A DNA stretch of 64,000 nt. Source: a virus (Duplodnaviria > Caudoviricetes). The stretch is taken from positions 6,990-70,989 of the IMG/VR virus record IMGVR_UViG_2922696095_000003; one strand, written 5' to 3'. The notes under the pieces were generated by a model. It did not search any database and was not told the origin of the DNA. It was given only the letters and a program-made list of their open reading frames with translations. A program made the translations under genes and the position numbers. Shown here one piece after another: positions 6,279-50,746 of the stretch (position 1 is its first letter; each line of letters opens with the position of its first letter).

Positions 6279-7583
6279 ATGGCAAAACCTACAGCTGAGC
6301 AATTAGTGAAGATCAATCAAAAATCATTGGTCCCTTTAACCGATGAACAAACTCATGTGTTTCAAGCGAGGATTATTGGAACCAAGCGTATTGATAAGTA
6401 CAAAATGAAGATTACTCCAAACTTCCTACGTAAAATGGCTGATCAAGTTAAAGAGGGAGTAGCCTTGCTGGTTGATCATCCGTGGCAGAAATGGGAAGCC
6501 TTATCGTTCCCTTATGGTCGAACCTTCGACAGTAGAATCGTAGAGGAAGGCGGGGAATTGGAACTCTACGGTGATCATTACATGGCAAAAGGGCTAGAAG
6601 CTAATGGGATCTCAACGGATCAACTAGCTACCGGTATTGATTCAGGAACTATATTTGACACCTCGGCAGGATTTGTAACAACGAAACATATTTGTGGTAT
6701 CTGTGGCGGTGACTACTACGGACCTTCAGCATGCTCTCACATCCGTGGACAAATGTATGACGACAAAGAATGTCTTGTTCTAGCCGATGACGGATACATC
6801 ATGGAGAACTCTATTGTATTTGATGGAGGTTATGAAGGAGCTGGAATTACTCGCGAATCCCTCTCGATGAAACAACATAGTGAAGGCGAGCAGCCAAAGC
6901 AAACTGAATATGAACCACTACCTTTAGATGCTAAGTCGCTAGATGGCGATGGACGCGTCTTTTATTTTTTCAGCAACAAAGGCGGCATGTCTGCTTTTGT
7001 ATCTAAACAGCATCAAACAAAAGAACAGGCCGAGACACTGGCTCAAGGAGATGACACTATGAATGAAGAACAAAAAGCTGCTTTGGCAGCAGCGCAAACC
7101 CAAGCAACTGCTCTGGCAGCGGCTAATGGTGTGCTTGGACAAATACGGGCTGCACTGGGCGTTGAAAGTGACGCAGAAATCCCAGCGAAGCTTACGGCGC
7201 TAAGTGTTCAAGCTGCTGATGGAGCAATGTACAAGGTGAAGGTCACTGAACAAGCATGTGGAGCTGGCATCCGCGCTCTTGGTGAAGCCTTTAATGTAGA
7301 AGCTATGAAAACTGCATTAGCTAATTTGCCGATATCTGAAATTGAAAAGATCGGCGCAACGTATGAAGCGCAGGCACAAGCTGCTTTGGGTGGTGGTGGT
7401 CGCCATACACAAGGTGACGATGTAAATCTTCCTGAAGGAGCACTGAATGGAACACCACCAACTAACTCACAAAATGATGGTAGCGAGAAAACGCCAGAAC
7501 AACTTAAAGCATTGGCTCGTGAAGAAGCTCGGGCGGCTCTTAAGAATACAGGCAGAGGTAATCTGCTGAAGGAGGATAAATAA
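6279..7583 (+). CDS. Prohead protease/scaffold protein
   Basis: Between portal and capsid genes; CxxC...CxH motif, Ala-rich helical C-terminus. Confidence 0.65.
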   Translation: MAKPTAEQLVKINQKSLVPLTDEQTHVFQARIIGTKRIDKYKMKITPNFLRKMADQVKEGVALLVDHPWQKWEALSFPYGRTFDSRIVEEGGELELYGDHYMAKGLEANGISTDQLATGIDSGTIFDTSAGFVTTKHICGICGGDYYGPSACSHIRGQMYDDKECLVLADDGYIMENSIVFDGGYEGAGITRESLSMKQHSEGEQPKQTEYEPLPLDAKSLDGDGRVFYFFSNKGGMSAFVSKQHQTKEQAETLAQGDDTMNEEQKAALAAAQTQATALAAANGVLGQIRAALGVESDAEIPAKLTALSVQAADGAMYKVKVTEQACGAGIRALGEAFNVEAMKTALANLPISEIEKIGATYEAQAQAALGGGGRHTQGDDVNLPEGALNGTPPTNSQNDGSEKTPEQLKALAREEARAALKNTGRGNLLKEDK

Positions 7584-27059: not shown

Positions 27060-28547
27060 CTAATCCCCACCGAGTTCAACCGTTTTCGTAGCGACACGGT
27101 CATGAAATTCCCGATCATGCTCCACGAATACAATGGTCGGCGTGTACTCAAGCAGCAGCTCTTCAATTTGCATCCGGGAAATCACGTCGACAAAGTTGAG
27201 CGGTTCGTCCCAAATATGCAGATGAGCCTCCTCACATAGGCTTCTCGCGATTAGAACCTTCTTCTTCTGACCGCCGCTAAACGCCGATATATCCTTCTCA
27301 AACTGGATGCGGGCGAAATCTAGCTTACGCAACACGGCCTTAAATAAGCTTTCGTCAATTCTGTGCTCTGCTGCATAATCGGAAAGCGTTCCTCGCAGAT
27401 GAGAAGTATTCTGGGATACATAGGAAACGCGAAGCTGCGGCTCCCGCTGAAACGTTCCTGTATAGTGTAGCGCCTCATCGTTGAGCAGGCGAAGCAAGCT
27501 AGACTTACCTGAACCATTTGGACCTGAAATTGCAATCCGATCTCCTGGTTCGATCGTCAGACTAACGTTCTTGCAAACCGCTCTTTCCCCGTAGTAAATC
27601 GTGACGTGATCCAGTATCGCCAGTTCCGATTTGGGATACACGAGCTGAGAGATCGCAAGGCTTTCTGACTGTTCGATATTTCGGAGCAGTTTCGATTTTT
27701 CCTCTAAAGCGGCGTGTTGCCGCTGTTCGATGGATTTCGAGCGTTTCATCATTTTCGCTGCCTTATGCCCGACGTAACCCTTGTCAAGCTTGGAACCGGA
27801 ATTTCGTGTGCCGTTTTTTGATTTTTCGGTCTCGAAAGACCAGCCGCTAGTACGTTTAGCAGAAGCTGATAAACGCTGTATGTCTTTGTACAGCTTTTCG
27901 TTTTGTGCCATTTCGAACGTGTCCTGGCGAGTTTTGTTCGTCCACCAGCTGGAGAAGTTGCCTTTTTGGATTTCGATATTCGTTTTGTTGATCGATAGAA
28001 TATGATCCACGCAGCGGTCGAGAAAAGCCCGGTCGTGTGAAACAAGAATAAAACCGCGCTTCGTATTCAGATAATCGGCGACAAGCTTGCGTGCGTGCAA
28101 GTCGAGATGATTGGTCGGCTCGTCGATGAGCAGAAATCGATTGTCTTGGATGAATAGCACGGCCAGCAATACCTTCGTCTGTTCTCCTTGGGACAGCGAT
28201 TCGAATGGCCGGTACAACACGTCTTCTGAAACCTTAAGCAGGTTCAGTTCGCGCATCAACTTCCAGTTCTCATAGTTTGGCACGATCTCTTCGACGACGT
28301 CTAAGGTCAAATACTCAGGATGTTCGACGGGAAACGGAAAATAATCAAAGGCGACTGGTGTGGAGATCGTACCGCTGTATTCGTACTTCCCCTGAAGCAG
28401 GTTTAAGAACGTCGTTTTCCCCCGACCGTTTCTCCCCGTAAAGCCCAACTTCCAGTCTGTATCAATTTGAAAATGAACATTTTCGAATATGGGGTCATAG
28501 CTGCCTGGATAGGCAAAAGTAAGATTGGTCACCTGAATGGCGGGCAT
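27060..28547 (-). CDS. lsa: Lsa-type ABC-F ribosomal protection protein
   Basis: 495 aa; NLTFAYPGSYDPIFENVHFQIDTDWKLGFTGRNGRGKTT; two ABC domains, no TM; more GC-rich than flanks. Confidence 0.85.
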   Translation of the reverse strand: MPAIQVTNLTFAYPGSYDPIFENVHFQIDTDWKLGFTGRNGRGKTTFLNLLQGKYEYSGTISTPVAFDYFPFPVEHPEYLTLDVVEEIVPNYENWKLMRELNLLKVSEDVLYRPFESLSQGEQTKVLLAVLFIQDNRFLLIDEPTNHLDLHARKLVADYLNTKRGFILVSHDRAFLDRCVDHILSINKTNIEIQKGNFSSWWTNKTRQDTFEMAQNEKLYKDIQRLSASAKRTSGWSFETEKSKNGTRNSGSKLDKGYVGHKAAKMMKRSKSIEQRQHAALEEKSKLLRNIEQSESLAISQLVYPKSELAILDHVTIYYGERAVCKNVSLTIEPGDRIAISGPNGSGKSSLLRLLNDEALHYTGTFQREPQLRVSYVSQNTSHLRGTLSDYAAEHRIDESLFKAVLRKLDFARIQFEKDISAFSGGQKKKVLIARSLCEEAHLHIWDEPLNFVDVISRMQIEELLLEYTPTIVFVEHDREFHDRVATKTVELGGD

Positions 28548-28559
28548 GGCAATCATCCT

Positions 28560-28837
28560 TTCGTTTGGAAATAAAAAAAGAGCCGCAAGAAAGGTGCTTT
28601 CTTGCGGCTCTAATCCATACGAGGAAATACGGCCCCATTCCAAGGGGCCGTATGACTGTCCGGAGAGGGAGCGCAAACGAAACGCAGAGCTTTCTTGCAG
28701 AGATGAAATAAAACGACCACAGCCGATCGCTGAGTCCGTTCTTTTCGTGATCTCGAAGCAAGAAAGTCCTACATGTATCCGTTCAACTCCCATCATCAAA
28801 TTACATTCAGTTTATCACAATGGTAATTTAACTACAA
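28560..28837 (-). promoter_or_regulatory. SigA-type promoter and attenuator leader of lsa
   Basis: TTGTAG-17-TAAACT (28837-28809); 14-bp-stem terminator plus U7 (28610-28573) before the SD; alternative pairing blocks at 28766-28758 and 28698-28690. Confidence 0.75.
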
Positions 28838-29823: not shown

Positions 29824-30045
29824 ATGGCAAAAATAAAATCTACATTGGATATACAACTAGATCTAACCAGACCTGTTGAGGATTTGACTGAGGTCATTTC
29901 CGCTGTAATTGCTTCACAGCCACATAAACGTAAAGAAATACTTAAGGGGTTGGATATAGCTGTAGGGAATGCATTAGCAGAGATACAGACCCAAGAAGAA
30001 AAGGAACAGAAAGTAGACGATGATAGCTCAGGAAAAGTTTCCTGA
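29824..30045 (+). CDS. Small hypothetical phage protein
   Basis: SD aaggaggtg; homologue at 56771. Confidence 0.7.
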   Translation: MAKIKSTLDIQLDLTRPVEDLTEVISAVIASQPHKRKEILKGLDIAVGNALAEIQTQEEKEQKVDDDSSGKVS

Positions 30046-30067
30046 ACGGAGAGACGGGGGAAGTAAG

Positions 30068-30535
30068 GTGGATAAGTGGGAGGTTTTTAAGTTCAGTACT
30101 GCTTTAGGAAGCAGCGCTGTGACGTATTTTTACGGTGGGTGGTCGGGAGTATTGGGGGTGTTACTTGCTCTGGTCATTATTGATTATGTGACTGGATTAT
30201 TTGCCGCTGGCGCAGAAGGTAAGAAGGGGACCGGACCCGGTTTAAAAAGTAAGATTGGTCTTATCGGTATAGCTCGAAAGGTATTTATTTTTGCAATGGT
30301 AGCAGTATCCCATCTAATTGATGGAGTCTTAGGCGATTCGCACCTATTCCGGGATGCAGTCGCCTATTTTTATATGGCAAATGAACTGCTGTCGATAGTT
30401 GAGAATGGTGGCAGGCTTGGCGCGCCGGTCCCGTCGATCATTCGGCAGGCTGTTGAGGTGCTAAAGAGCAAAGGCGGTAACCAGGGAGGAGATAGTAAGA
30501 ATGATAACACTGGAGCAGATAAAGAAAAAATCTGA
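30068..30535 (+). CDS. Holin (phage holin 4-like family)
   Basis: IDYVTG, GIARKV, ANELLSIVEN motifs; TM segments. Confidence 0.88.
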   Translation: MDKWEVFKFSTALGSSAVTYFYGGWSGVLGVLLALVIIDYVTGLFAAGAEGKKGTGPGLKSKIGLIGIARKVFIFAMVAVSHLIDGVLGDSHLFRDAVAYFYMANELLSIVENGGRLGAPVPSIIRQAVEVLKSKGGNQGGDSKNDNTGADKEKI

Positions 30536-31268
30536 TAAGCGCTTGAGCGGGCTTCATCCGGTTTTTAAGATGACTCTTGAAAAACTGATAGACCGCTGTT
30601 ACGCCCGTGGAGTCTGGTTGTTAATTACGCAAGGATTACGAACGTATGCGGAGCAGGATGCTTTATATGCTCAAGGGCGTACGAAGCCAGGGCAGGTGGT
30701 CACTAAAGCACGGGGTGGATGCAGCAATCATAATTTTGGTTTTGCGGCCGATTTCGCGCTGCTGTTGCGTGACGGTCGTACGGTATCCTGGGACACCTTA
30801 AAGGACGATGATAAGGATTCGCTTCCTGACTGGAGCGAAGTCGTTGATGAAGCTAAAAAGCTTGGCCTTGAATGGGGCGGCGATTGGCGTAGCTTTAAAG
30901 ATATGCCTCACCTGCAGATGGTCTTTGGAATTACGACGGCTCAATTTCGGGCGGGCAAGCACCCAACTCAGGCCCAGCTTGATGCAGCTTTAATGAAGAT
31001 TAATAAAACGGAGGATGAGGAAATGACAGCAGAAGAAAAGGCAGCGTTTAAGGAGCTGCAAGCAATCGTTCAAAAGCAGGCTGACCGTATCAAAACGCTG
31101 GAGACAGCAGCTAAACAGCCTAAAGTACCAGCGTGGGCAGAACAAGCCTGTATCAACGCCAAGGCCTCAGGTGCCCTGGATACCGCTAATGATGGATCTT
31201 ATGACTTTTACCGCATGGTCACGCTACTTGATCGAACAGGTATTTTCAACGGGAAAGGGGATAAATAA
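30501..31268 (+). CDS. Endolysin, M15 L-Ala-D-Glu peptidase (CwlK-like)
   Basis: GLRTYAEQDALYAQGRT, SNHNFGFAAD, WGGDW, DMPHLQ. Confidence 0.9.
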   Translation: MITLEQIKKKSDKRLSGLHPVFKMTLEKLIDRCYARGVWLLITQGLRTYAEQDALYAQGRTKPGQVVTKARGGCSNHNFGFAADFALLLRDGRTVSWDTLKDDDKDSLPDWSEVVDEAKKLGLEWGGDWRSFKDMPHLQMVFGITTAQFRAGKHPTQAQLDAALMKINKTEDEEMTAEEKAAFKELQAIVQKQADRIKTLETAAKQPKVPAWAEQACINAKASGALDTANDGSYDFYRMVTLLDRTGIFNGKGDK

Positions 31269-42913: not shown

Positions 42914-43588
42914 TTACTTCTTCTTTTCAGTAATTTTAAGACCGACTTTCTCTTTTGCTTGCATTAGTTTAAGAACACCTTGCATTGTGTCCTGATCTGC
43001 TAATTTGATATTCTCTTCGAAGTCATTCATATAACTAGGTTTTTGTTCATCAAGATATGAGAGTACTGAATTAAATGCTTCACTTTTAGAGTAATAGGCA
43101 GTTGCCAAGTGTCTTTTGGATTGTTCAAGAAGATCTTTAACCTCAGAAGGCAAAGCATTTGGAACTTCAAGCTCATTATATTGTGACATTAACGATAAAG
43201 CTGTATCTTTTGCGTCCTTAGTTGATCCATATACCGTCAACACGTCAGTCTTACCTTTACCTAAGGAATCCATGTCTGATTTATATTTATTGAATACAGT
43301 TGCTCCACTGTTCTCAACACTAAAAAATGTGTTCTCAAAATTAATAACCAGTTGCTGCTTCATTTTTTTATCTGCTGCTTCTTTCTTAGGATCAGAAACA
43401 GCGACAGGCGTTTCAATTTTCTTTTCTGGTGTGGATTTCTGCGTGGCATCTACCGGAGTGGATTGTTTTGTACCCGTATCACTAGCGTTCTTATTCTCTT
43501 CTTTATCTTTACCCATATTACCTATTCCGCTAATCACAATAACAATAATGACCCAAAACCACCACTTCTTATAAACAGGTTTCTTCAA
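42914..43588 (-). CDS. Membrane-anchored hypothetical protein
   Basis: KKPVYKKWWFWVII anchor; helical ectodomain. Confidence 0.75.
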   Translation of the reverse strand: MKKPVYKKWWFWVIIVIVISGIGNMGKDKEENKNASDTGTKQSTPVDATQKSTPEKKIETPVAVSDPKKEAADKKMKQQLVINFENTFFSVENSGATVFNKYKSDMDSLGKGKTDVLTVYGSTKDAKDTALSLMSQYNELEVPNALPSEVKDLLEQSKRHLATAYYSKSEAFNSVLSYLDEQKPSYMNDFEENIKLADQDTMQGVLKLMQAKEKVGLKITEKKK

Positions 43589-43701
43589 GCTTTTTTTCTC
43601 CCCCTAATGGATCAGTAATATATTCCATATATAGTCTATCAGACCTAGGAATATTTTTCTAGCAAAAAAGTTTTAGATACAGCATGCAAAAAGTCTTGTC
43701 T

Positions 43702-43715
43702 AGAACATATGTTCG
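43702..43715. promoter_or_regulatory. LexA (SOS) box upstream of yolD-like gene
   Basis: AGAACATATGTTCG versus Firmicutes consensus CGAAC-N4-GTTCG. Confidence 0.85.
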
Positions 43716-43754
43716 GAATATAATTTCTACATAACACATCAGGAGGCTACATAC

Positions 43755-44090
43755 ATGTCGAAAAAATTAGAAGGTAACGGCTTATGGGAAAGCAGTCGGA
43801 TTATCATACCAGAACACAAGGAAGCATACTTAAAACTCATGCAAGACCGCCAGCGGAGAGGCAAGCCGGAACTTGACGATCAGGAAGTCCGGTTGATCGA
43901 GCAAGCGCTTATAGAGTCCTACAACACACGTCAACCTGTAACACTGGTGGTTTTTAGCCCGTTCGATGACGAAGAACTCAAAGGTGTAATCACGTCTATA
44001 AATACTGCTCGCAGGGAAGTAAAACTGTTTCGTGGCGAAGATGATTATAGTTGGATCAAGTTGGAGGATATTATTTCAGCAAGTATCTAG
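43755..44090 (+). CDS. YolD-like protein
   Basis: LWESSRIIIPEHKE, KPELDDQE, WIKLEDIIS; SOS box upstream. Confidence 0.85.
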   Translation: MSKKLEGNGLWESSRIIIPEHKEAYLKLMQDRQRRGKPELDDQEVRLIEQALIESYNTRQPVTLVVFSPFDDEELKGVITSINTARREVKLFRGEDDYSWIKLEDIISASI

Positions 44091-44203
44091 CAGATAAATC
44101 TAGAGAATAGTAAAATATCCGTGCGATTTTTGTAATAAAAGTATATATATTGGAAAATGTTCATGGTATATTTATCCTAGAACTAAATACCTAGGGGGAT
44201 ATC

Positions 44204-45271
44204 ATGAGAAGTAATGGAAAGGGAAAAATCATAGGAATTATCTTTGCAGTAATTGTAGCTGTTGCAATTATTAAGTATTTAGGATTGCTTATTATAGCAG
44301 GAGGGCTTGGCTACTGGGGGTATAAAAAATATCAGAATGCTAAGAGAGAAAATCAGAAGAGTAAACTAGCCATAGTTTTATTTTCACTTGCCGGGATTTT
44401 CTTTTTAGCGTTCATCGGGAATCTAACGAATGTTAAGCAGCAGGAATTAGTGAATAAAGCACCAGCTGTTCCAGCTAAAGTAGAACAAACTTCTGTGGTA
44501 CCTACTACAACTAAATCTGAGCAAACTTCAAACATTGTTTCTACCTCAGCATCTAACGAAAAGGCGGATTCTGAACAACCAAAACGTATTCCTATAACTT
44601 TAATAGCGGGAACGGATGGAGATACATTTAAAGCATCAGTTCAAGGGAAAGAGGAAAAGATTCGACTACTCCTAGTAGATACGCCAGAAAGCGTAAAACA
44701 GGGTACACCAGTCCAACCGTTCGCAAAAGAAGCTTCGGCTTTTACGCTGAAGCAATTAAAGCAGGGTAATCTTTCCCTAGAGCTTGATGTTTCAAAACGA
44801 GATAAGTATGGTCGTCTACTTGGTTATGTATGGGTTGGAGATAAGATGTTGAATGCAATGTTAATCGAGAAAGGTTATGCTCGGGTGGCCTACATAAATC
44901 CTCCAAACGTTAAATATGTCGATCAATTCAAGGAGATTCAAGCTACTGCTCAAAAGAGTGGAACAGGCATCTGGAGTATTGAAAACTATGCGCAAGAAGA
45001 TGGATTCAATCAGAAGGCAGCTCAAAAGGCAACTGCAAAGACTGAATCTAAAAGTAATGATTCAAGTGTAAAAGAATCTAAGCCTAAAGTAGTTACTCCT
45101 AAAAAGGAAGTCGTCCAAACTTATTCTGAACCAAGAGAATCATCAAGCAATGTATACTATAAAAACTGTTCTGCGGTTCGTGCTGCTGGTGCCGATCCAA
45201 TTTATGAAGGTGAACCAGGTTATAGTAGGAAACTGGATCGTGATGGTGATGGAGTAGCTTGTGAAAGATAA
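44204..45271 (+). CDS. Membrane-anchored thermonuclease with Excalibur domain
   Basis: DGDT, IRLLLVDTPES, DKYGRLLGYV; C-terminal YKNCSAVRAAG...LDRDGDGVACE. Confidence 0.92.
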   Translation: MRSNGKGKIIGIIFAVIVAVAIIKYLGLLIIAGGLGYWGYKKYQNAKRENQKSKLAIVLFSLAGIFFLAFIGNLTNVKQQELVNKAPAVPAKVEQTSVVPTTTKSEQTSNIVSTSASNEKADSEQPKRIPITLIAGTDGDTFKASVQGKEEKIRLLLVDTPESVKQGTPVQPFAKEASAFTLKQLKQGNLSLELDVSKRDKYGRLLGYVWVGDKMLNAMLIEKGYARVAYINPPNVKYVDQFKEIQATAQKSGTGIWSIENYAQEDGFNQKAAQKATAKTESKSNDSSVKESKPKVVTPKKEVVQTYSEPRESSSNVYYKNCSAVRAAGADPIYEGEPGYSRKLDRDGDGVACER

Positions 45272-45355
45272 TCTTTGTTAAAAACTATTCCTCGGTGCAT
45301 ATCCGAGGAATTTTTATGATTTCATTAATTAATACTACACTCTACAAAAAGAGGG

Positions 45356-45625
45356 ATGAGAATTTTGATTGAGATTAGTATAGATGAAAAGGAAGCGAAA
45401 AAACTTATATTGAAAAAAGTTTCGGAGTTGGTGGAAGTAGTTGATGCTGAATATATATTTTGGGATACAAAAGAATTGAAGAAGAGAACTTGTATGAGTT
45501 GGAATGCAATCCTCGATACCTTTTTTTACGATCCGAGATTTATCAAACGGAAAATAGGGAGGAAATGGTATTTTCCGGCTCGTGAAACGAGAGCCTTCTT
45601 AGAACAATGGCTTTTAGAACAATAG
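45356..45625 (+). CDS. Small winged-helix/excisionase-like protein
   Basis: WDTKELKKRTCMSW...RKIGRKWYFP. Confidence 0.6.
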   Translation: MRILIEISIDEKEAKKLILKKVSELVEVVDAEYIFWDTKELKKRTCMSWNAILDTFFYDPRFIKRKIGRKWYFPARETRAFLEQWLLEQ

Positions 45626-45810
45626 ATATTTTAAGAGGCTTGTCTATAAGGTTATTTTTGCTTGAATTTTATATAACTTCACGTAAAAAAATTACCTTAC
45701 ATATGCACAATTTATACCAAATTACACTGCTAATTGGATTGCCACTCATTGGTAGCAAATGTAGTATTAAAAGTGTGCTTGTTACCAATTATGCGAAGGG
45801 GTTATGTGAT

Positions 45811-46443
45811 ATGTGGGAGCCTATAAGGTTCTTGCTTTTTTCAACTGTAGAAACTTTTGCAGCGTTCGTTTTAATGTTAACTATTTTCAGAGTTAGGGCA
45901 TTAGACTATGTATGGCCTGCATTGTTTATTGGATTAATAATGAATTTGCAGAGCTTTATTTTGAGGGAAGAGACATCGTTATCTTTCTTTGCTCCAACCA
46001 TAAACATTATATTGTTCACATTATTGATAACCACTGTTGTTAGAATGCCAATTATTTGGGCAGCTATAATATCCATTACAGGCACATTTCTATATACGTT
46101 ATTCCAAGCGGTAATTATATTGATGCTCTTTGGTACATTAACAACTGAAATGCAGACTTCAGCAGAAGGATCATTGGCGCAAGCAGTAACTAGCGCATGG
46201 GTGTTAGCTGTTTCGTGGTTTCTGTATAAATTTAATATAGGCTTTACAGCAGATTATGAAAATCTCCGTTTTAGGTGGGAACATGTACTTGTTGTTATCT
46301 TAATAATCGGGGTACTAGCTGCTTGTACATTTATGTTTTACTTTAACAATTTCTTTCTGAGTATTTTATTCATAACCCTAGCATCTGTAATGTTTTTGTA
46401 TTATGCATTAAAAACGGAGCGTGATTACCATAAAAAGTCTTGA
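45811..46443 (+). CDS. Multi-TM protein, AgrC-sensor-like but without kinase domains
   Basis: 210 aa, about 6-7 hydrophobic segments, ends right after last TM; overlaps agrB. Confidence 0.65.
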   Translation: MWEPIRFLLFSTVETFAAFVLMLTIFRVRALDYVWPALFIGLIMNLQSFILREETSLSFFAPTINIILFTLLITTVVRMPIIWAAIISITGTFLYTLFQAVIILMLFGTLTTEMQTSAEGSLAQAVTSAWVLAVSWFLYKFNIGFTADYENLRFRWEHVLVVILIIGVLAACTFMFYFNNFFLSILFITLASVMFLYYALKTERDYHKKS

Positions 46444-46975
46444 CTCCATCGCTCTAGATATAGCAACACACATCAAAACTGTTGTCCCCGATCATCCAGC
46501 ACCCGTAAATGTTTTAAAACATGGGATAGCCGTTACGATCAACACAGTTTCAATTGTTTTGCTAACTATTGGTATTTCAGTTTTTACGGATAAGATACAA
46601 GAAGCTGTGCTGGCAATGATATCTTTTTCGATGCTACGTCAAACTGTAGGAGGCATACATTTAAAGAGCAATATAGCGTGTATTATTGTATCTACAGTTC
46701 TACTTACCGCTTTATCTTTTGCAAGTTTTAATTACAATTGGATCGTCATTACTTCGATAATAAGTATTGTACTTGTCTTGGTTTACGCACCATCACGGCT
46801 AGAGGGGAAGACACGCATATCAAAGCGACACTACCCATTGCTAAAATTTTCGGGAGTTGCAATTATTGCACTTAATTTGTGGTTGGCTTTACCGGTAGTA
46901 GGCGCTAGCTTTTTTGTTCAGAGTTTAACACTAATAGGAGGAGGTGTGAGAAATGAAGAAAAACAAACTGAGTAA
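46421..46975 (+). CDS. agrB: AgrB-family peptide-processing membrane protease
   Basis: LRQTVGGIHLKSNIACIIVS with catalytic His/Cys; YAP motif. Confidence 0.88.
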   Translation: MITIKSLDSIALDIATHIKTVVPDHPAPVNVLKHGIAVTINTVSIVLLTIGISVFTDKIQEAVLAMISFSMLRQTVGGIHLKSNIACIIVSTVLLTALSFASFNYNWIVITSIISIVLVLVYAPSRLEGKTRISKRHYPLLKFSGVAIIALNLWLALPVVGASFFVQSLTLIGGGVRNEEKQTE

Positions 46976-47099
46976 AGTAAAGGCTGGTATGTATTACAAT
47001 ATTGCTGCAATGCTAACAACACTTGCTGTTGCGTCAGTTAGCACAGCAAGTCTTTCTTGGATTCATAGCCCCGAGCCACCGAAAGAATTGTTGAAATAA
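46953..47099 (+). CDS. agrD: AgrD-like autoinducer propeptide (not in ORF track)
   Basis: SD ggaggaggtg; MKKNKLSKVKAGMYYNIAAMLTTLAVASVSTASLSWIHSPEPPKELLK*. Confidence 0.85.
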   Translation: MKKNKLSKVKAGMYYNIAAMLTTLAVASVSTASLSWIHSPEPPKELLK

Positions 47100-47114
47100 G
47101 CGAGGAATGACAAA

Positions 47115-47510
47115 ATGCTAAGTTTAACAGTATCGGCAGACCCTGGAGGTATTGATCAAGGCGAAAACGTACAAGTGGATAAGGTTCTTTTTATATCTAA
47201 AGGGCGTAAGAGAGACCAGATTTTAGTTCACACAATTGAAAAGACTTACTACATGATTGGAACCCTTAGACATTGGGAAAACTTTTTGAACAGTAACGGA
47301 TTCCGTTTTTTGAATGTGGACAGAAGTAACACTCTTAATGTAGAAAAAGTAAAAATCGTTAATGGTATTTTCAAAGATGCTTACTTTGAGTGTGATATAA
47401 CAAAAACCTCAAAAAGGTGCCCTATTGCGTATCATCGGTTTGAAGAGGTTATAAAAGAGATGGGTTTCATTAATTCAGACATAATATTCACGGGAGTTGC
47501 TACTAGATAG
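47115..47510 (+). CDS. LytTR-only DNA-binding regulator (no receiver domain)
   Basis: VLFIS...ILVHT...GTLRHWENFL...FLNVDRSNTLNVEKVK; 131 aa. Confidence 0.8.
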   Translation: MLSLTVSADPGGIDQGENVQVDKVLFISKGRKRDQILVHTIEKTYYMIGTLRHWENFLNSNGFRFLNVDRSNTLNVEKVKIVNGIFKDAYFECDITKTSKRCPIAYHRFEEVIKEMGFINSDIIFTGVATR

Positions 47511-47524
47511 CAACTCTTTTTTTT
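47492..47524 (+). terminator. Terminator of agr-like operon
   Basis: gagttgcta-ctaga-tagcaactc followed by T8. Confidence 0.8.
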
Positions 47525-47942
47525 GTTGAAAATATTGTATTTAAATGTCGAAAAATGATACACATCCAGCGCCTGAATTTATGTTGCCAAAGAACCTAAT
47601 AATGGGATTTAATATATGTTAGTGGATATAATTCTTAAACAAGGAATAAAGTAGAGGAATGATGAATGTTATTGCTCCGAATATAATATGGGAAAAGTGA
47701 TTACTAATTACTACCCATTCGTATAGATCTTTCATCCTACAACCGAAGAATTGAGCAGCGTGTACATATCTTTTAGATTTTATTACCGTCATTTCTTAGA
47801 AGTGAGAAATAATGCGCTGTGGTCAGTAGATCTTCGCACATATTCCGTTGGGATCCAACTTTTCTGTTTTAGAAGGAAGTAAATAAGATTTTAGCTTGTC
47901 AGTAAACAACGATTTAATTATACGATTTAGGAGAGGTCTATT

Positions 47943-48146
47943 ATGGTAATTTTATTAAATGAAGAAAACCAGATGAAAATCAAAGGAAATGATACTTTTA
48001 CTTATTCTGTTGAAAACGGAGGTATTAAGGAAGTACAAGTACAGTCAATAGTGAATGAAGTTTGGAGATATGGCGGGAAAGAAATATCACACGAACAACT
48101 CATAAAAATACTAAATCACATAAAAGTTCTTGCATCACAAGGATAA
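47943..48146 (+). CDS. Hypothetical protein
   Basis: SD aggagagg; hairpin at ~48150-48184. Confidence 0.55.
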   Translation: MVILLNEENQMKIKGNDTFTYSVENGGIKEVQVQSIVNEVWRYGGKEISHEQLIKILNHIKVLASQG

Positions 48147-48184
48147 AAAAATAGCTTTAGCATATGACCACTAAAGCTATTTTC

Positions 48185-48475
48185 TTGACCGCATTTTGAC
48201 CGCGCTTTTTAAAGATTTAAGTGTATTTGAAAGTATATTGATAATCTGAACATAATATATTTTGCAGTATACTCAAGAGAGAAAATATGTTGAAACCCAA
48301 AGGAATACTGAGTGCTTTTGTATCGCACCCAAGTACATCAATGGGAACGCGATCAATATCTGACTCTTTACTAAAATGGGAAATCCCTTGGCGCTCTAAG
48401 CGTTGAGGGATTTTTTGTGTGTGGTAGGTAAAAAAATTTATTAAGTTGATTTATAATTGCCCCCTAATTGCCCCC
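48185..48475. other. Putative att junction between the two prophages
   Basis: TTGACCGC x2 (48185, 48196); short gene-end-like segment ...PKYINGNAINI* plus terminator 48381-48416; TAATTGCCCCC x2 (48454, 48465) beside integrase remnant. Confidence 0.5.
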
Positions 48476-48489
48476 CAAAATTTTTATTA

Positions 48490-48654
48490 TCAGAATAAAT
48501 TTTCAGTAACAGACTCATAGTTCTCCATGCTATTCATCTCTATTTTTTTGGAGATGTGTGCATAAACGTCGGCTGTTATTTGGATGCTACCATGTCCAAG
48601 CCACTCCTGTACATACTTCATTGTAGCCCTAGCTTCAAGTAGCAATACCGCATG
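48490..48654 (-). pseudogene. Tyrosine integrase C-terminal remnant
   Basis: HAVLLLEARATMKYVQEWLGHGSIQITADVYAHISKK. Confidence 0.85.
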
Positions 48655-48707
48655 ATTTTATATATGCGTTTGCCCGAACAGAAAGCATAACGCCAATCGC
48701 TTTCAAG

Positions 48708-48830
48708 GGAAAAAATTTCAAACTAACGTTGAATGCAAAATATGTGTTGGATGTCTTGAAAGTCTTAGAAAACGAAGTGACTACACTCGGGTATACTGGC
48801 TCTTCTAAACCATTCACTCTCGAGAGTGAC
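48708..48830 (+). pseudogene. DnaN (beta clamp) C-terminal fragment
   Basis: KLTLNAKYVLDVLKVLENEVTTLGYTGSSKPFTL. Confidence 0.55.
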
Positions 48831-48959
48831 AGGAAGCTATGGATAAGAGACAGATTTCTGTTTTTGAAAATATGCTAAATGATATTTTAGGAGCTTCAGC
48901 TAAACAGCAAGTGTCTTTTGGATAAGGACATTTTGAGGATTGAAAACAGATAGTAGAAC

Positions 48960-49181
48960 TTACAGGAATATAACCAAAAGTCCACATGTTAAAAAGAAGA
49001 ACCCAAAGAGAATCGATACAGAGCCTCTAAATTTCATGTCATCAATGTAAGCATCACTTGGTTCTGAGTCCCCTTTGATCTTCCAGGCTTCGTTTGCACG
49101 CCATCCCCAAGTGGGATTTCGTTTACTTAAAATACCAAGCGAGAAAAAAATAATCGCAATAAGAATAAGCATGAATCCCAT
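48960..49181 (-). CDS. Small 2-TM membrane protein (DUF6199-like)
   Basis: NPTWGWRANEAWKIKGDSEPSDAYI motif. Confidence 0.7.
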   Translation of the reverse strand: MGFMLILIAIIFFSLGILSKRNPTWGWRANEAWKIKGDSEPSDAYIDDMKFRGSVSILFGFFFLTCGLLVIFL

Positions 49182-49299
49182 TGGATCAGCCCCTTTAAGT
49201 AAACTATACCAAAAAAGAACGATAGATGGAAAGTATCGTCCCTCAAGGAAAGATAGAAGAAAAATAAGAGGGCTTTGCCCTCCATGTGATGGTGCAATT

Positions 49300-49734
49300 T
49301 TAATCTGAGTAGGCAACAGCATTAAAACTCTCTATTCCTATTCGGGTAGCATCTGCTGTGCAAAATAGATATAAGGTATCCACCAATTTATTTGATGGTG
49401 GTAGAGGGACATTGTAATCGGAAGCATTTATGGTGACGACCTGTACAGCGTTTGGGTTTGCTTCGGAGACACTTACAGAGTAAAGGGCGTAAGCAACAAG
49501 CGAATCGAAATTGCCTCTAACAATGGAAAAAGAAATAACGGAGTCAAATGGTGGAGGGGTAGGAAATGCAAGCTCAGCTATCCCGGATAATTGTACACGC
49601 ATGTTTTCCCCTGCGCCCGTTACATCTAAGCCAAGCTCAGCAATGGCAACGGGAGTATTGGCTGGCAAGGGAATAGAGATTGTATTACCGTAACTTGCGT
49701 TTTGAGATGTTCGAGCATCTAACAATCTAGTCAT
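49300..49734 (-). CDS. Putative exosporium/spore-surface protein
   Basis: MTRLLDARTSQNAS N-terminus; beta-sandwich pattern; divergent from collagen gene. Confidence 0.5.
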   Translation of the reverse strand: MTRLLDARTSQNASYGNTISIPLPANTPVAIAELGLDVTGAGENMRVQLSGIAELAFPTPPPFDSVISFSIVRGNFDSLVAYALYSVSVSEANPNAVQVVTINASDYNVPLPPSNKLVDTLYLFCTADATRIGIESFNAVAYSD

Positions 49735-49975
49735 TATCTCATCTCCCTTTTTGGGTAAAGGATTTGCAAGCTGGAAATATAAAAATACAGACAGTGTAGG
49801 ATTTGGACCGGTTAATTGAACTGGATATTAAGCTTCAGAAGGATGAGCTGTAATAATGCTAACACGATAGGGTCAGACCTATGCCTATTTTCCCGAAATG
49901 AAGTCAACAGCCCAATCTTTTTGGTTAATTGCACAATAAGCTACTTTGACTAGACTTTGGAGGTGACCATTAATT

Positions 49976-50746
49976 ATGTTTCGACATTATTGTTGGCAGA
50001 AGAGTATGCATCGGAGAAAATTTAGAAGATGTGTAGTTAAAAAAGTCAAAGTGTTACCGAAAGTTATTGTTAAAGGGATCCGAGGACCTCAAGGACCTCA
50101 AGGACCTCAAGGACCTCAAGGACCTCAAGGACCTCAAGGACCTCAGGGACTGCCGGGTCCACAGGGAGTTCCAGGTGCTCAAGGCCAGCAAGGGCTACAA
50201 GGTTTTCAAGGAATTCCCGGACCAACAGGACCAGCAGGAGCAGTAGGGCCAGCAGGACCAGTGGGACCGGCAGGAGCAGTAGGGCCAGCAGGAGCGGTAG
50301 GACCAGCAGGAGCAACGGGGGCAGCGGGACCTGCAGGCGCCGGTATAACAGACTTCTTAAGTGTTTTCCGAGCAGATCCTGGCACGGGAACTGACACAGT
50401 TCCGGGTAACTCACCAATTACCTTTACTGGAGTTTTAGCTAATGTTGGTGGTGCATTTACTTTCACTCCTCCATCTACAACGATAACAATCAACGAAACG
50501 GGGAGCTATCTAATAAATTTTACAATTCATAACCAAGGTGATGCTGACTTTAACCTTACCGTAAATGGAATCCCTGTTACCCCTGTTCCCTTCACGGGTA
50601 ACGGTGGCGGACCAATTTCGGCAGAAGTCATTATTACTGTAGGGGTCGTTCCTACAACTATTCAATTGGTAAATGCAAATGCAACCCCAGCCCAACTTCA
50701 TAACTTTACCAATACCACTCTTACTATATTAAAGTTGACTGTTTAA
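49976..50746 (+). CDS. Collagen-like protein with BclA-type C-terminal domain
   Basis: About 29 GXY triplets; [15 protein letters not shown]-terminal domain. Confidence 0.82.
50084..50146 (+). repeat. 9-bp tandem repeat ggacctcaa x7 (GPQ)
   Basis: Directly visible in sequence. Confidence 0.95.

Follow-up and report, generated by a model that had tools for sequence, protein, structure and literature searches.

The stretch analysed here (the window) is 64,000 nucleotides (nt) of a Caudoviricetes provirus, positions 6,990 to 70,989 of IMG/VR record IMGVR_UViG_2922696095_000003. At positions 45811-47510 on the plus strand it carries a four-gene cassette that encodes, in order, a predicted seven-helix membrane protein of 210 amino acids (aa), hereafter TM210, an AgrB-type peptidase, an AgrD-type peptide precursor and a DNA-binding protein that consists of a LytTR domain only. 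The cassette is a conserved phage module under purifying selection. Many Paenibacillus prophages carry it, as do phages of Brevibacillus, and on these temperate phages it joins the peptide-making half of an agr system to the way in which LytTR regulatory systems (LRS) combine a regulator with a membrane protein. Our belief is evenly divided on whether it works as a phage-borne, agr-like peptide signalling module that dispenses with phosphorylation.

An earlier note, made from the letters of the window alone, had described a tight operon with intact frames and a single terminator, encoding a membrane protein that stops after its last helix, an AgrB with its His and Cys in place, a 48-aa AgrD and a 131-aa LytTR protein, with no kinase or receiver domain among them; each of these points stood up. 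TM210 and AgrB overlap by 23 nt, as do AgrB and AgrD, and 15 nt separate AgrD from the LytTR gene, all four genes being coupled on the plus strand. One hairpin of the intrinsic-terminator type, with 11 pairs and a T run, was found by sequence scan and spans the LytTR stop codon (47492-47518, plus strand). On the 5′ side, a consensus scan identified a promoter-like site, TTGCCA-17-TAGTAT (45739-45767, plus strand), and the same hexamers are kept in the alignment of the upstream regions. An AT-rich element just 5′ of the −35 hexamer (45684-45738, plus strand) aligns in 13 loci, including those with another upstream gene, and 130 nt upstream of the cassette are conserved across loci. Searches of Pfam and NCBIfam with the four proteins gave no match to a HisKA, HATPase or REC family.

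AgrB (46421-46975, plus strand) matched PF04647 with an E value of 1.2e-17 and 64.4 bits (cut-off 23); a comparison with PDB sequences gave no match. Residues H80 and C87, at a spacing of 7, occur without exception in the 13 AgrBs aligned and are what we take to be the counterparts of the catalytic pair of S. aureus. AgrD (46953-47099, plus strand, 48 aa) scored 32.3 bits against TIGR04223 (cut-off 19). Comparison across the family showed a pattern of an invariant Ala-Ser, five variable residues and the tail [S/N]-P-x-[P/A]-P-x-E-L. The Ser is conserved in 18 of 18 type I cassettes (the types are given below), and the cassette AgrD has no Cys; we therefore infer that the product is a five-residue Ser lactone, S-L-S-W-I in the copy in the window.

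The last gene (47115-47510, plus strand) encodes a protein of 131 aa with a LytTR domain (PF04397, 26.4 bits, cut-off 22.6) and no receiver; nine close homologues are 117-132 aa long. The AlphaFold2 model of this protein has a predicted local distance difference test score (pLDDT) of 92. A Foldseek search with the model returned the LytTR domains of AgrA at the top, with a probability of 1.0 and TM scores of 0.79-0.85 (normalised to the target), and further matches to a LytTR domain of B. cereus and to ComE. In Brevibacillus laterosporus phage Abouo, gp47 (L018:4645-5013) is called a “peptidase” in NC_029029, as in the label of phrog_15081. Because this protein is a LytTR domain (29.4 bits in Pfam), the label is doubtful and probably wrong. 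The equivalent protein of phage Emery, gp57, scored 19.1 bits, below the LytTR cut-off of 22.6.

TM210 (45811-46443, plus strand) is the protein that we propose as the peptide receptor and the partner of LytTR. It matched phrog_15604, a family annotated as “membrane protein”, with an E value of 2.4e-9. Its conserved start, MWEP, lies inside a longer frame of 278 aa, the AlphaFold2 model (pLDDT 75) consists of seven long helices, and the protein ends 8 residues past the last predicted helix. A hand count from the sequence gives about 10 Lys/Arg in the inside loops and 2 in the outside loops for a topology with the N-terminus out and the C-terminus in. In both a shallow and a deep alignment, column entropy peaks in the predicted outer loops L2, L4 and L6; among the loops it is lowest in the cytoplasmic ones, L1, L3 and L5, which only TM1 equals in the shallow alignment.

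The length of TM210 is typical of its relatives. Its 20 close homologues are each 206-217 aa long, and all have the same MWEP start. When 1.84 billion representatives were searched exhaustively with a profile, 351 relatives emerged; the best 150 of these are 75-242 aa long, with no relative of kinase length among them, and a word-based search aimed at longer forms was empty. The earlier note had reasoned that close homologues with full kinase and receiver domains would speak for a deletion relic, and the homologues proved to be stand-alone proteins of about 210 aa. The sampled family members come from Paenibacillus, Cohnella, Brevibacillus and Priestia, and in the ESM Atlas TM210 met only unnamed Bacillota clusters.

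In Paenibacillus genomes, 15 loci hold 16 cassettes, and TM210, AgrB, AgrD and LytTR are all intact in 12 of them. Among the IMG/VR viral contigs, the full ordered cassette is present in 15 of 16, the last being truncated by the contig end. The record ends less than 4 kb past the TM210 start in nine of these 16 contigs, the provirus ends being computed predictions. The four-gene order is maintained down to 41% identity of TM210. The ratio of nonsynonymous to synonymous substitution (dN/dS) was calculated for eight pairs with saturated-dS values excluded, and was 0.05-0.07 for TM210, 0.08-0.21 for AgrB, 0.04-0.21 for AgrD and 0.05-0.11 for LytTR. At loci L013, L015 and L076 the cassette lies a few kb 3′ of a lysis cassette, and at L076 XRE-type repressor-like genes follow directly on its 3′ side.

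Two arrangements among the genome loci are of a different kind. The cassette L016a, counted among the 12 intact ones, has the order AgrB-TM210-AgrD-LytTR; a possible TM210 remnant lies 5′ of its AgrB and a second, normal cassette lies 3 kb downstream (L016:7248-9161), which looks like a rearrangement between two cassettes. In addition, one genome has two pairs of identical cassette loci, L002/L003 and L013/L015, about 60 kb and 38 kb apart on the same contigs, which suggests duplicated or tandem prophages.

The divergence of the four genes is uneven. Four groups were distinguished by the residues of the AgrD ring region, SLIYVY, SLFYVY, SIAFIY and SLVFVH. Between them, AgrB distances are 0.21-0.31, TM210 distances 0.42-0.56 and LytTR distances 0.59-0.69, and the last two match the distances between unrelated groups. 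Two of the groups have two members each, and inside these the differences are no larger than 0.13 for TM210 and 0.12 for LytTR. Over 11 cassettes, TM210 and LytTR distances had a partial correlation, given AgrB, of 0.65, the highest of the six tested. TM210, LytTR and the AgrD ring residues thus diversify together while AgrB stays close. Because of this pattern, co-diversification favours TM210 as a putative peptide receptor that is paired with LytTR and would match both peptide and regulator. The need for such a matched receptor would arise in hosts with several cassettes.

We also examined the AgrB loci of six genomes, which number 24, with 2-6 per genome and four type I copies in one genome. 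Type I (11 of 24) is TM210-AgrB-AgrD, with LytTR in eight. Type II (5 of 24) is a chromosomal TM210-AgrB-AgrD trio beside rsmD and coaD with no LytTR. Type III (7 of 24) has a more distant membrane protein and AgrB, and in three cases also a protein of 236-244 aa with LytTR matches in both halves, which has no receiver domain and probably consists of two LytTR domains. The remaining locus is an AgrB fragment. A multi-helix membrane open reading frame (ORF) lies immediately 5′ of AgrB in 23 of the 24 loci, across the six genomes, and the TM210 profile picked up 21; L024 and L039 have only an upstream ORF of 238-253 aa, which is outside the detection of the profile. No PF14501 kinase was found within 60 kb of AgrB at 21 loci in five genomes, and a layout without an AgrC-type kinase is thus the normal one in this group.

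Some of these loci have features of their own. In L024:813-2841, L026:597-2653 and L039:610-2695 a YolD gene is followed by a membrane protein of 237-253 aa, AgrB, a peptide of 40-47 aa and then the LytTR protein of 236-244 aa, whose match falls in the N- or C-terminal half. The type II trio (L022:7933-9201; also L031, L034, L036 and L044) lies between an Acyl_transf_3 gene and rsmD/coaD. The acyltransferase neighbour raised the identity of this locus with the published Pp-AIP locus of P. polymyxa, which we rejected because the published peptide, ICFGLF, contains Cys and type II AgrD has Ser and other residues. An ORF of 116 aa 3′ of type II AgrD was likewise rejected as a gene, as it matched no family and looks spurious.

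With canonical agrBDCA of Staphylococcus and Listeria, and with agr3 of the C. difficile phage phiCDHM1, the cassette shares the AgrB/AgrD pair for a cyclic peptide, an output regulator of the LytTR fold and the division into specificity groups. An AgrB with His and Cys and an AgrD with Ser were found; an AgrC kinase and a receiver-bearing AgrA were not. Unlike both of these systems, the cassette has no histidine kinase and no receiver domain, and its membrane partner is not detectably related to AgrC sensors. Furthermore, unlike in canonical agr, the membrane gene comes first, and no RNAIII-like RNA was found around the cassette (an Rfam scan of 43000-50000 gave zero matches).

A precedent is found in LRS. 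Zou et al. 2018 (PMC6193735) describes a receiver-less LytTR regulator with a membrane inhibitor in HdrRM and BrsRM of Streptococcus mutans, gives as the mark of such systems two 9-bp direct repeats with 11-13 bp spacing just 5′ of the −35 of the operon, and presents LRS as widespread, with unknown input signals. Like them, the cassette pairs a LytTR regulator that lacks a receiver with a multi-pass membrane protein, without phosphotransfer, and this co-operonic pairing was found in 15 of the 16 viral contigs. On the other hand, HdrRM and BrsRM are two-gene operons with the regulator first, whereas the cassette has AgrB and AgrD in between, supplying a candidate signal; its membrane protein belongs to another family, and the defining direct repeats are not evident.

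In arbitrium (AimR/AimP/AimX) of Bacillus phages, a linear peptide is imported and binds a cytoplasmic receptor. The likeness to the cassette is that temperate phages of Bacillales encode a peptide signal specific to their lineage, the function of the cassette being deduced from its genes. The difference is that the expectation here is a cyclic peptide with a membrane protein; screening of the four cassette proteins gave no family match to an AimR-type receptor or to AimP.

The same gene order, namely membrane protein, AgrB, small peptide and LytTR-only protein, is present in two Brevibacillus laterosporus phages, Abouo (gp44-47) and Emery (gp53-57). Their AgrBs are only 29-32% identical to that of the window, and their membrane proteins match TM210 weakly, with hidden Markov model (HMM) E values of 6.6e-5 to 2e-9 and an hhalign probability of 54%. 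In both phages the cassette lies between a recombinase gene and XRE/repressor-type regulators. In Abouo the integrase is adjacent and a YolD-like gene (gp40) is close; the cassette is on the integrase side, whereas that of the window is 3′ of lysis and cargo genes. In Emery, gp53 and gp54 (L019:2547-3948) are tandem TM210-family genes 5′ of AgrB, with HMM E values of 1e-7 and 2e-9. In phage Davies only an AgrB match was seen.

On the signalling reading, AgrB would cut AgrD and close the five-residue Ser lactone ring, S-L-S-W-I for the window copy, and the exported peptide would bind the variable outer loops of TM210. TM210 would hold or release LytTR through its conserved cytoplasmic loop, residues 141-157, and its tail, in the manner of the streptococcal LRS membrane inhibitors, and freed LytTR would alter transcription of the cassette and of further phage or host genes. 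Since the module is split into specificity groups, each phage lineage would have a private signal. A role in the decision between lysis and lysogeny is possible, given that in Abouo, Emery and L076 the cassette has integrase or repressor genes beside it; the output may be control of lysogeny or induction, or instead a lysogen trait.

Several results weigh against this reading. TM210 has no NCBIfam family and no Pfam family above the cut-off, and it therefore lies outside the families of the known LytTR-system membrane proteins. The comparison with AgrC sensor domains that the earlier note had proposed recovered no relationship: the hhalign probability against the sensor parts of two Paenibacillus AgrC-type kinases, used as single-sequence templates, was below 1%. 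Fold searches with TM210 were empty (best E value 0.34 in PDB and 0.57 in BFVD, which holds predicted viral structures), and the sequence profile of TM210 matched nothing in PDB. A scan of upstream regions for LytTR repeats (9-mer pairs with at least 7/9 matches at a period of 19-23 nt) found zero pairs upstream of the cassette in the window; those at other loci are weak, with 8/9 at 21 nt in L013 and L014 and 7/9 at 20 nt in L002 and L005. Within the window, the word conserved upstream of the cassettes recurs no more often than chance would give, and points to no LytTR target. Moreover, LytTR is lost or broken in four of the 16 genome cassettes, one of which also has a split AgrB, and the co-diversification is based on few independent events. 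Overall, what has held of the earlier note's kinase-free circuit is the intact, phage-borne module without kinase or receiver; similarity to AgrC and clear LytTR repeats upstream have not emerged.

Further observations concern the partner of TM210. The 23-nt overlap couples TM210 translationally to AgrB and not to LytTR, the type II trio keeps TM210 with AgrB and AgrD at a conserved chromosomal site in five genomes where LytTR is lacking, and a membrane ORF directly 5′ of AgrB is near-constant in the survey. TM210 is thus tied more tightly to AgrB than to LytTR, and the main rival is therefore a biosynthetic or export function, in which TM210 is a partner of AgrB/AgrD in maturation (for example, the second cut of the precursor), export or self-protection and not a receptor, and LytTR is controlled otherwise or is a simple autoregulator. 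The polar residues S11, E14, Q99 and Q124, which are conserved within the predicted helices of TM210, would also suit such a function. However, no protease family or motif was found in TM210 with Pfam and NCBIfam, the outer loops are its most variable part, and across the four groups of close AgrBs it diverges with LytTR and not with AgrB. We consider this explanation somewhat unlikely. Another alternative is a host-directed gene set with no closed circuit, in which the phage peptide or the LytTR-only protein disturbs agr-type systems of the host, for instance by competing with an AgrA-like regulator at promoters. The host genomes do carry separate pairs of AgrC-type kinase and REC-LytTR protein, the cassette has its own predicted promoter and terminator in a cargo region, and antibiotic synthesis in P. 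polymyxa is controlled by the Cys-type cyclic peptide ICFGLF, according to PMC12180512. The phage AgrD, however, has Ser instead of Cys and unrelated ring residues, and LytTR diverges in step with TM210, which is unexpected if one conserved set of host promoters were the target, so that we find this alternative quite improbable. The gene content would also agree with a decayed canonical agrBDCA, being close to agr minus two domains. This is hardly credible, as the frames are intact, dN/dS is 0.04-0.21 and about 30 loci as well as isolated phages share one layout; long TM210 relatives were not found by the word search or among the best 150 of 351 profile matches, and the gene order is unlike that of agrBDCA.

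The surroundings of the cassette were examined over the window, which is a portion of the provirus record. Genes for the terminase, portal, major head protein, tail proteins, holin and endolysin occupy the first 32 kb. The cassette lies 14.5 kb downstream of the holin and endolysin (30020-31268, plus strand; PHROGs E values of 1.6e-25 and 2e-43, respectively). Between the prophage tail and lysis genes, an ABC-transporter-like gene of 579 aa (27060-28799, minus strand; phrog_293, E 9.7e-88) runs antisense. Past the lysis genes there is a low-GC cargo region with a Sie-like gene, an ATP-dependent DNA ligase, a YolD-like gene and a secreted nuclease. The YolD-like gene (43755-44090, plus strand; PF08863, E 8.7e-23) is the customary upstream neighbour of the cassette at other loci. 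With its own predicted promoter and terminator, a position 3′ of the lysis genes and a nearby prophage end, the cassette in the window resembles a self-contained moron. The names of homologues place the host in the Paenibacillus polymyxa group.

The neighbour that the earlier note had called excisionase-like, orf89 (45356-45625), did not keep that description: it scored 17.2 bits against Pfam DUF771 (cut-off 22.9), and its top PHROG, phrog_9848, has no assigned function. When the cassette was used in a DNA search of a phage collection, orf89 was the sole match, and a tblastn search with TM210 as query gave no match. PHROGs families already cover three of the cassette proteins (phrog_15604, phrog_10353 and phrog_15081). 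The IMG/VR record contains no integrase and no left end. On the 3′ side of the cassette, a C-terminal fragment of a tyrosine integrase (48490-48645, minus strand; PF00589, E 0.0012, below cut-off) lies beside short out-of-frame ORFs at 48416-48987, and in other assemblies 48416-48506 and 48416-48959 are replaced or skipped. Because of the integrase fragment and because assemblies differ at this very place, 48416-48987 is likely an old prophage junction. Farther on, 49976-50746 encodes a protein with collagen repeats and, at its C-terminus, a BclA domain (37.5 bits, cut-off 38), as in spore surface proteins, and a BclA-type collagen-repeat gene also lies 3′ of the cassette in L068 and L070. The segment 54909-58444 carries BacA (undecaprenyl-diphosphatase, minus strand), then an antirepressor (ANT/Bro) gene and a GH25 lysin, and seems to be another, incomplete prophage or what is left of one, on the right-hand side of the first.

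A phage cassette of this kind had been glimpsed before. The accessible part of Hargreaves et al. 2014 (PMC3901668) mentions the cassette of the Brevibacillus phages Abouo, Davies and Emery in passing, and names AgrB, AgrD and membrane proteins there but not the LytTR gene. Our literature search found no study of the cassette after that paper, and the LytTR pairing, the breadth, the specificity groups and the mechanism appear not to have been described previously in the literature searched.

If the signalling reading is true, the question of LRS input signals would become testable on an LRS version equipped with genes for making its own peptide. It would also mean that an agr-type peptide can be read without phosphorylation. 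If the output touches lysogeny, phages would have a communication system other than arbitrium in this cassette. The fuller form of this idea, a second family of phage peptide communication in temperate phages of Paenibacillaceae, unrelated to arbitrium, in which a lineage-specific cyclic lactone makes a kinase-free, seven-helix anti-regulator release LytTR and so sets lysogeny or induction, is one that we regard as unlikely at present; were it true, the peptide would be the first kind of ligand known for the LRS class. The specificity groups in polylysogenic hosts suggest private channels between co-resident prophages, and related phages or hosts may use the cassette to keep private dialects.

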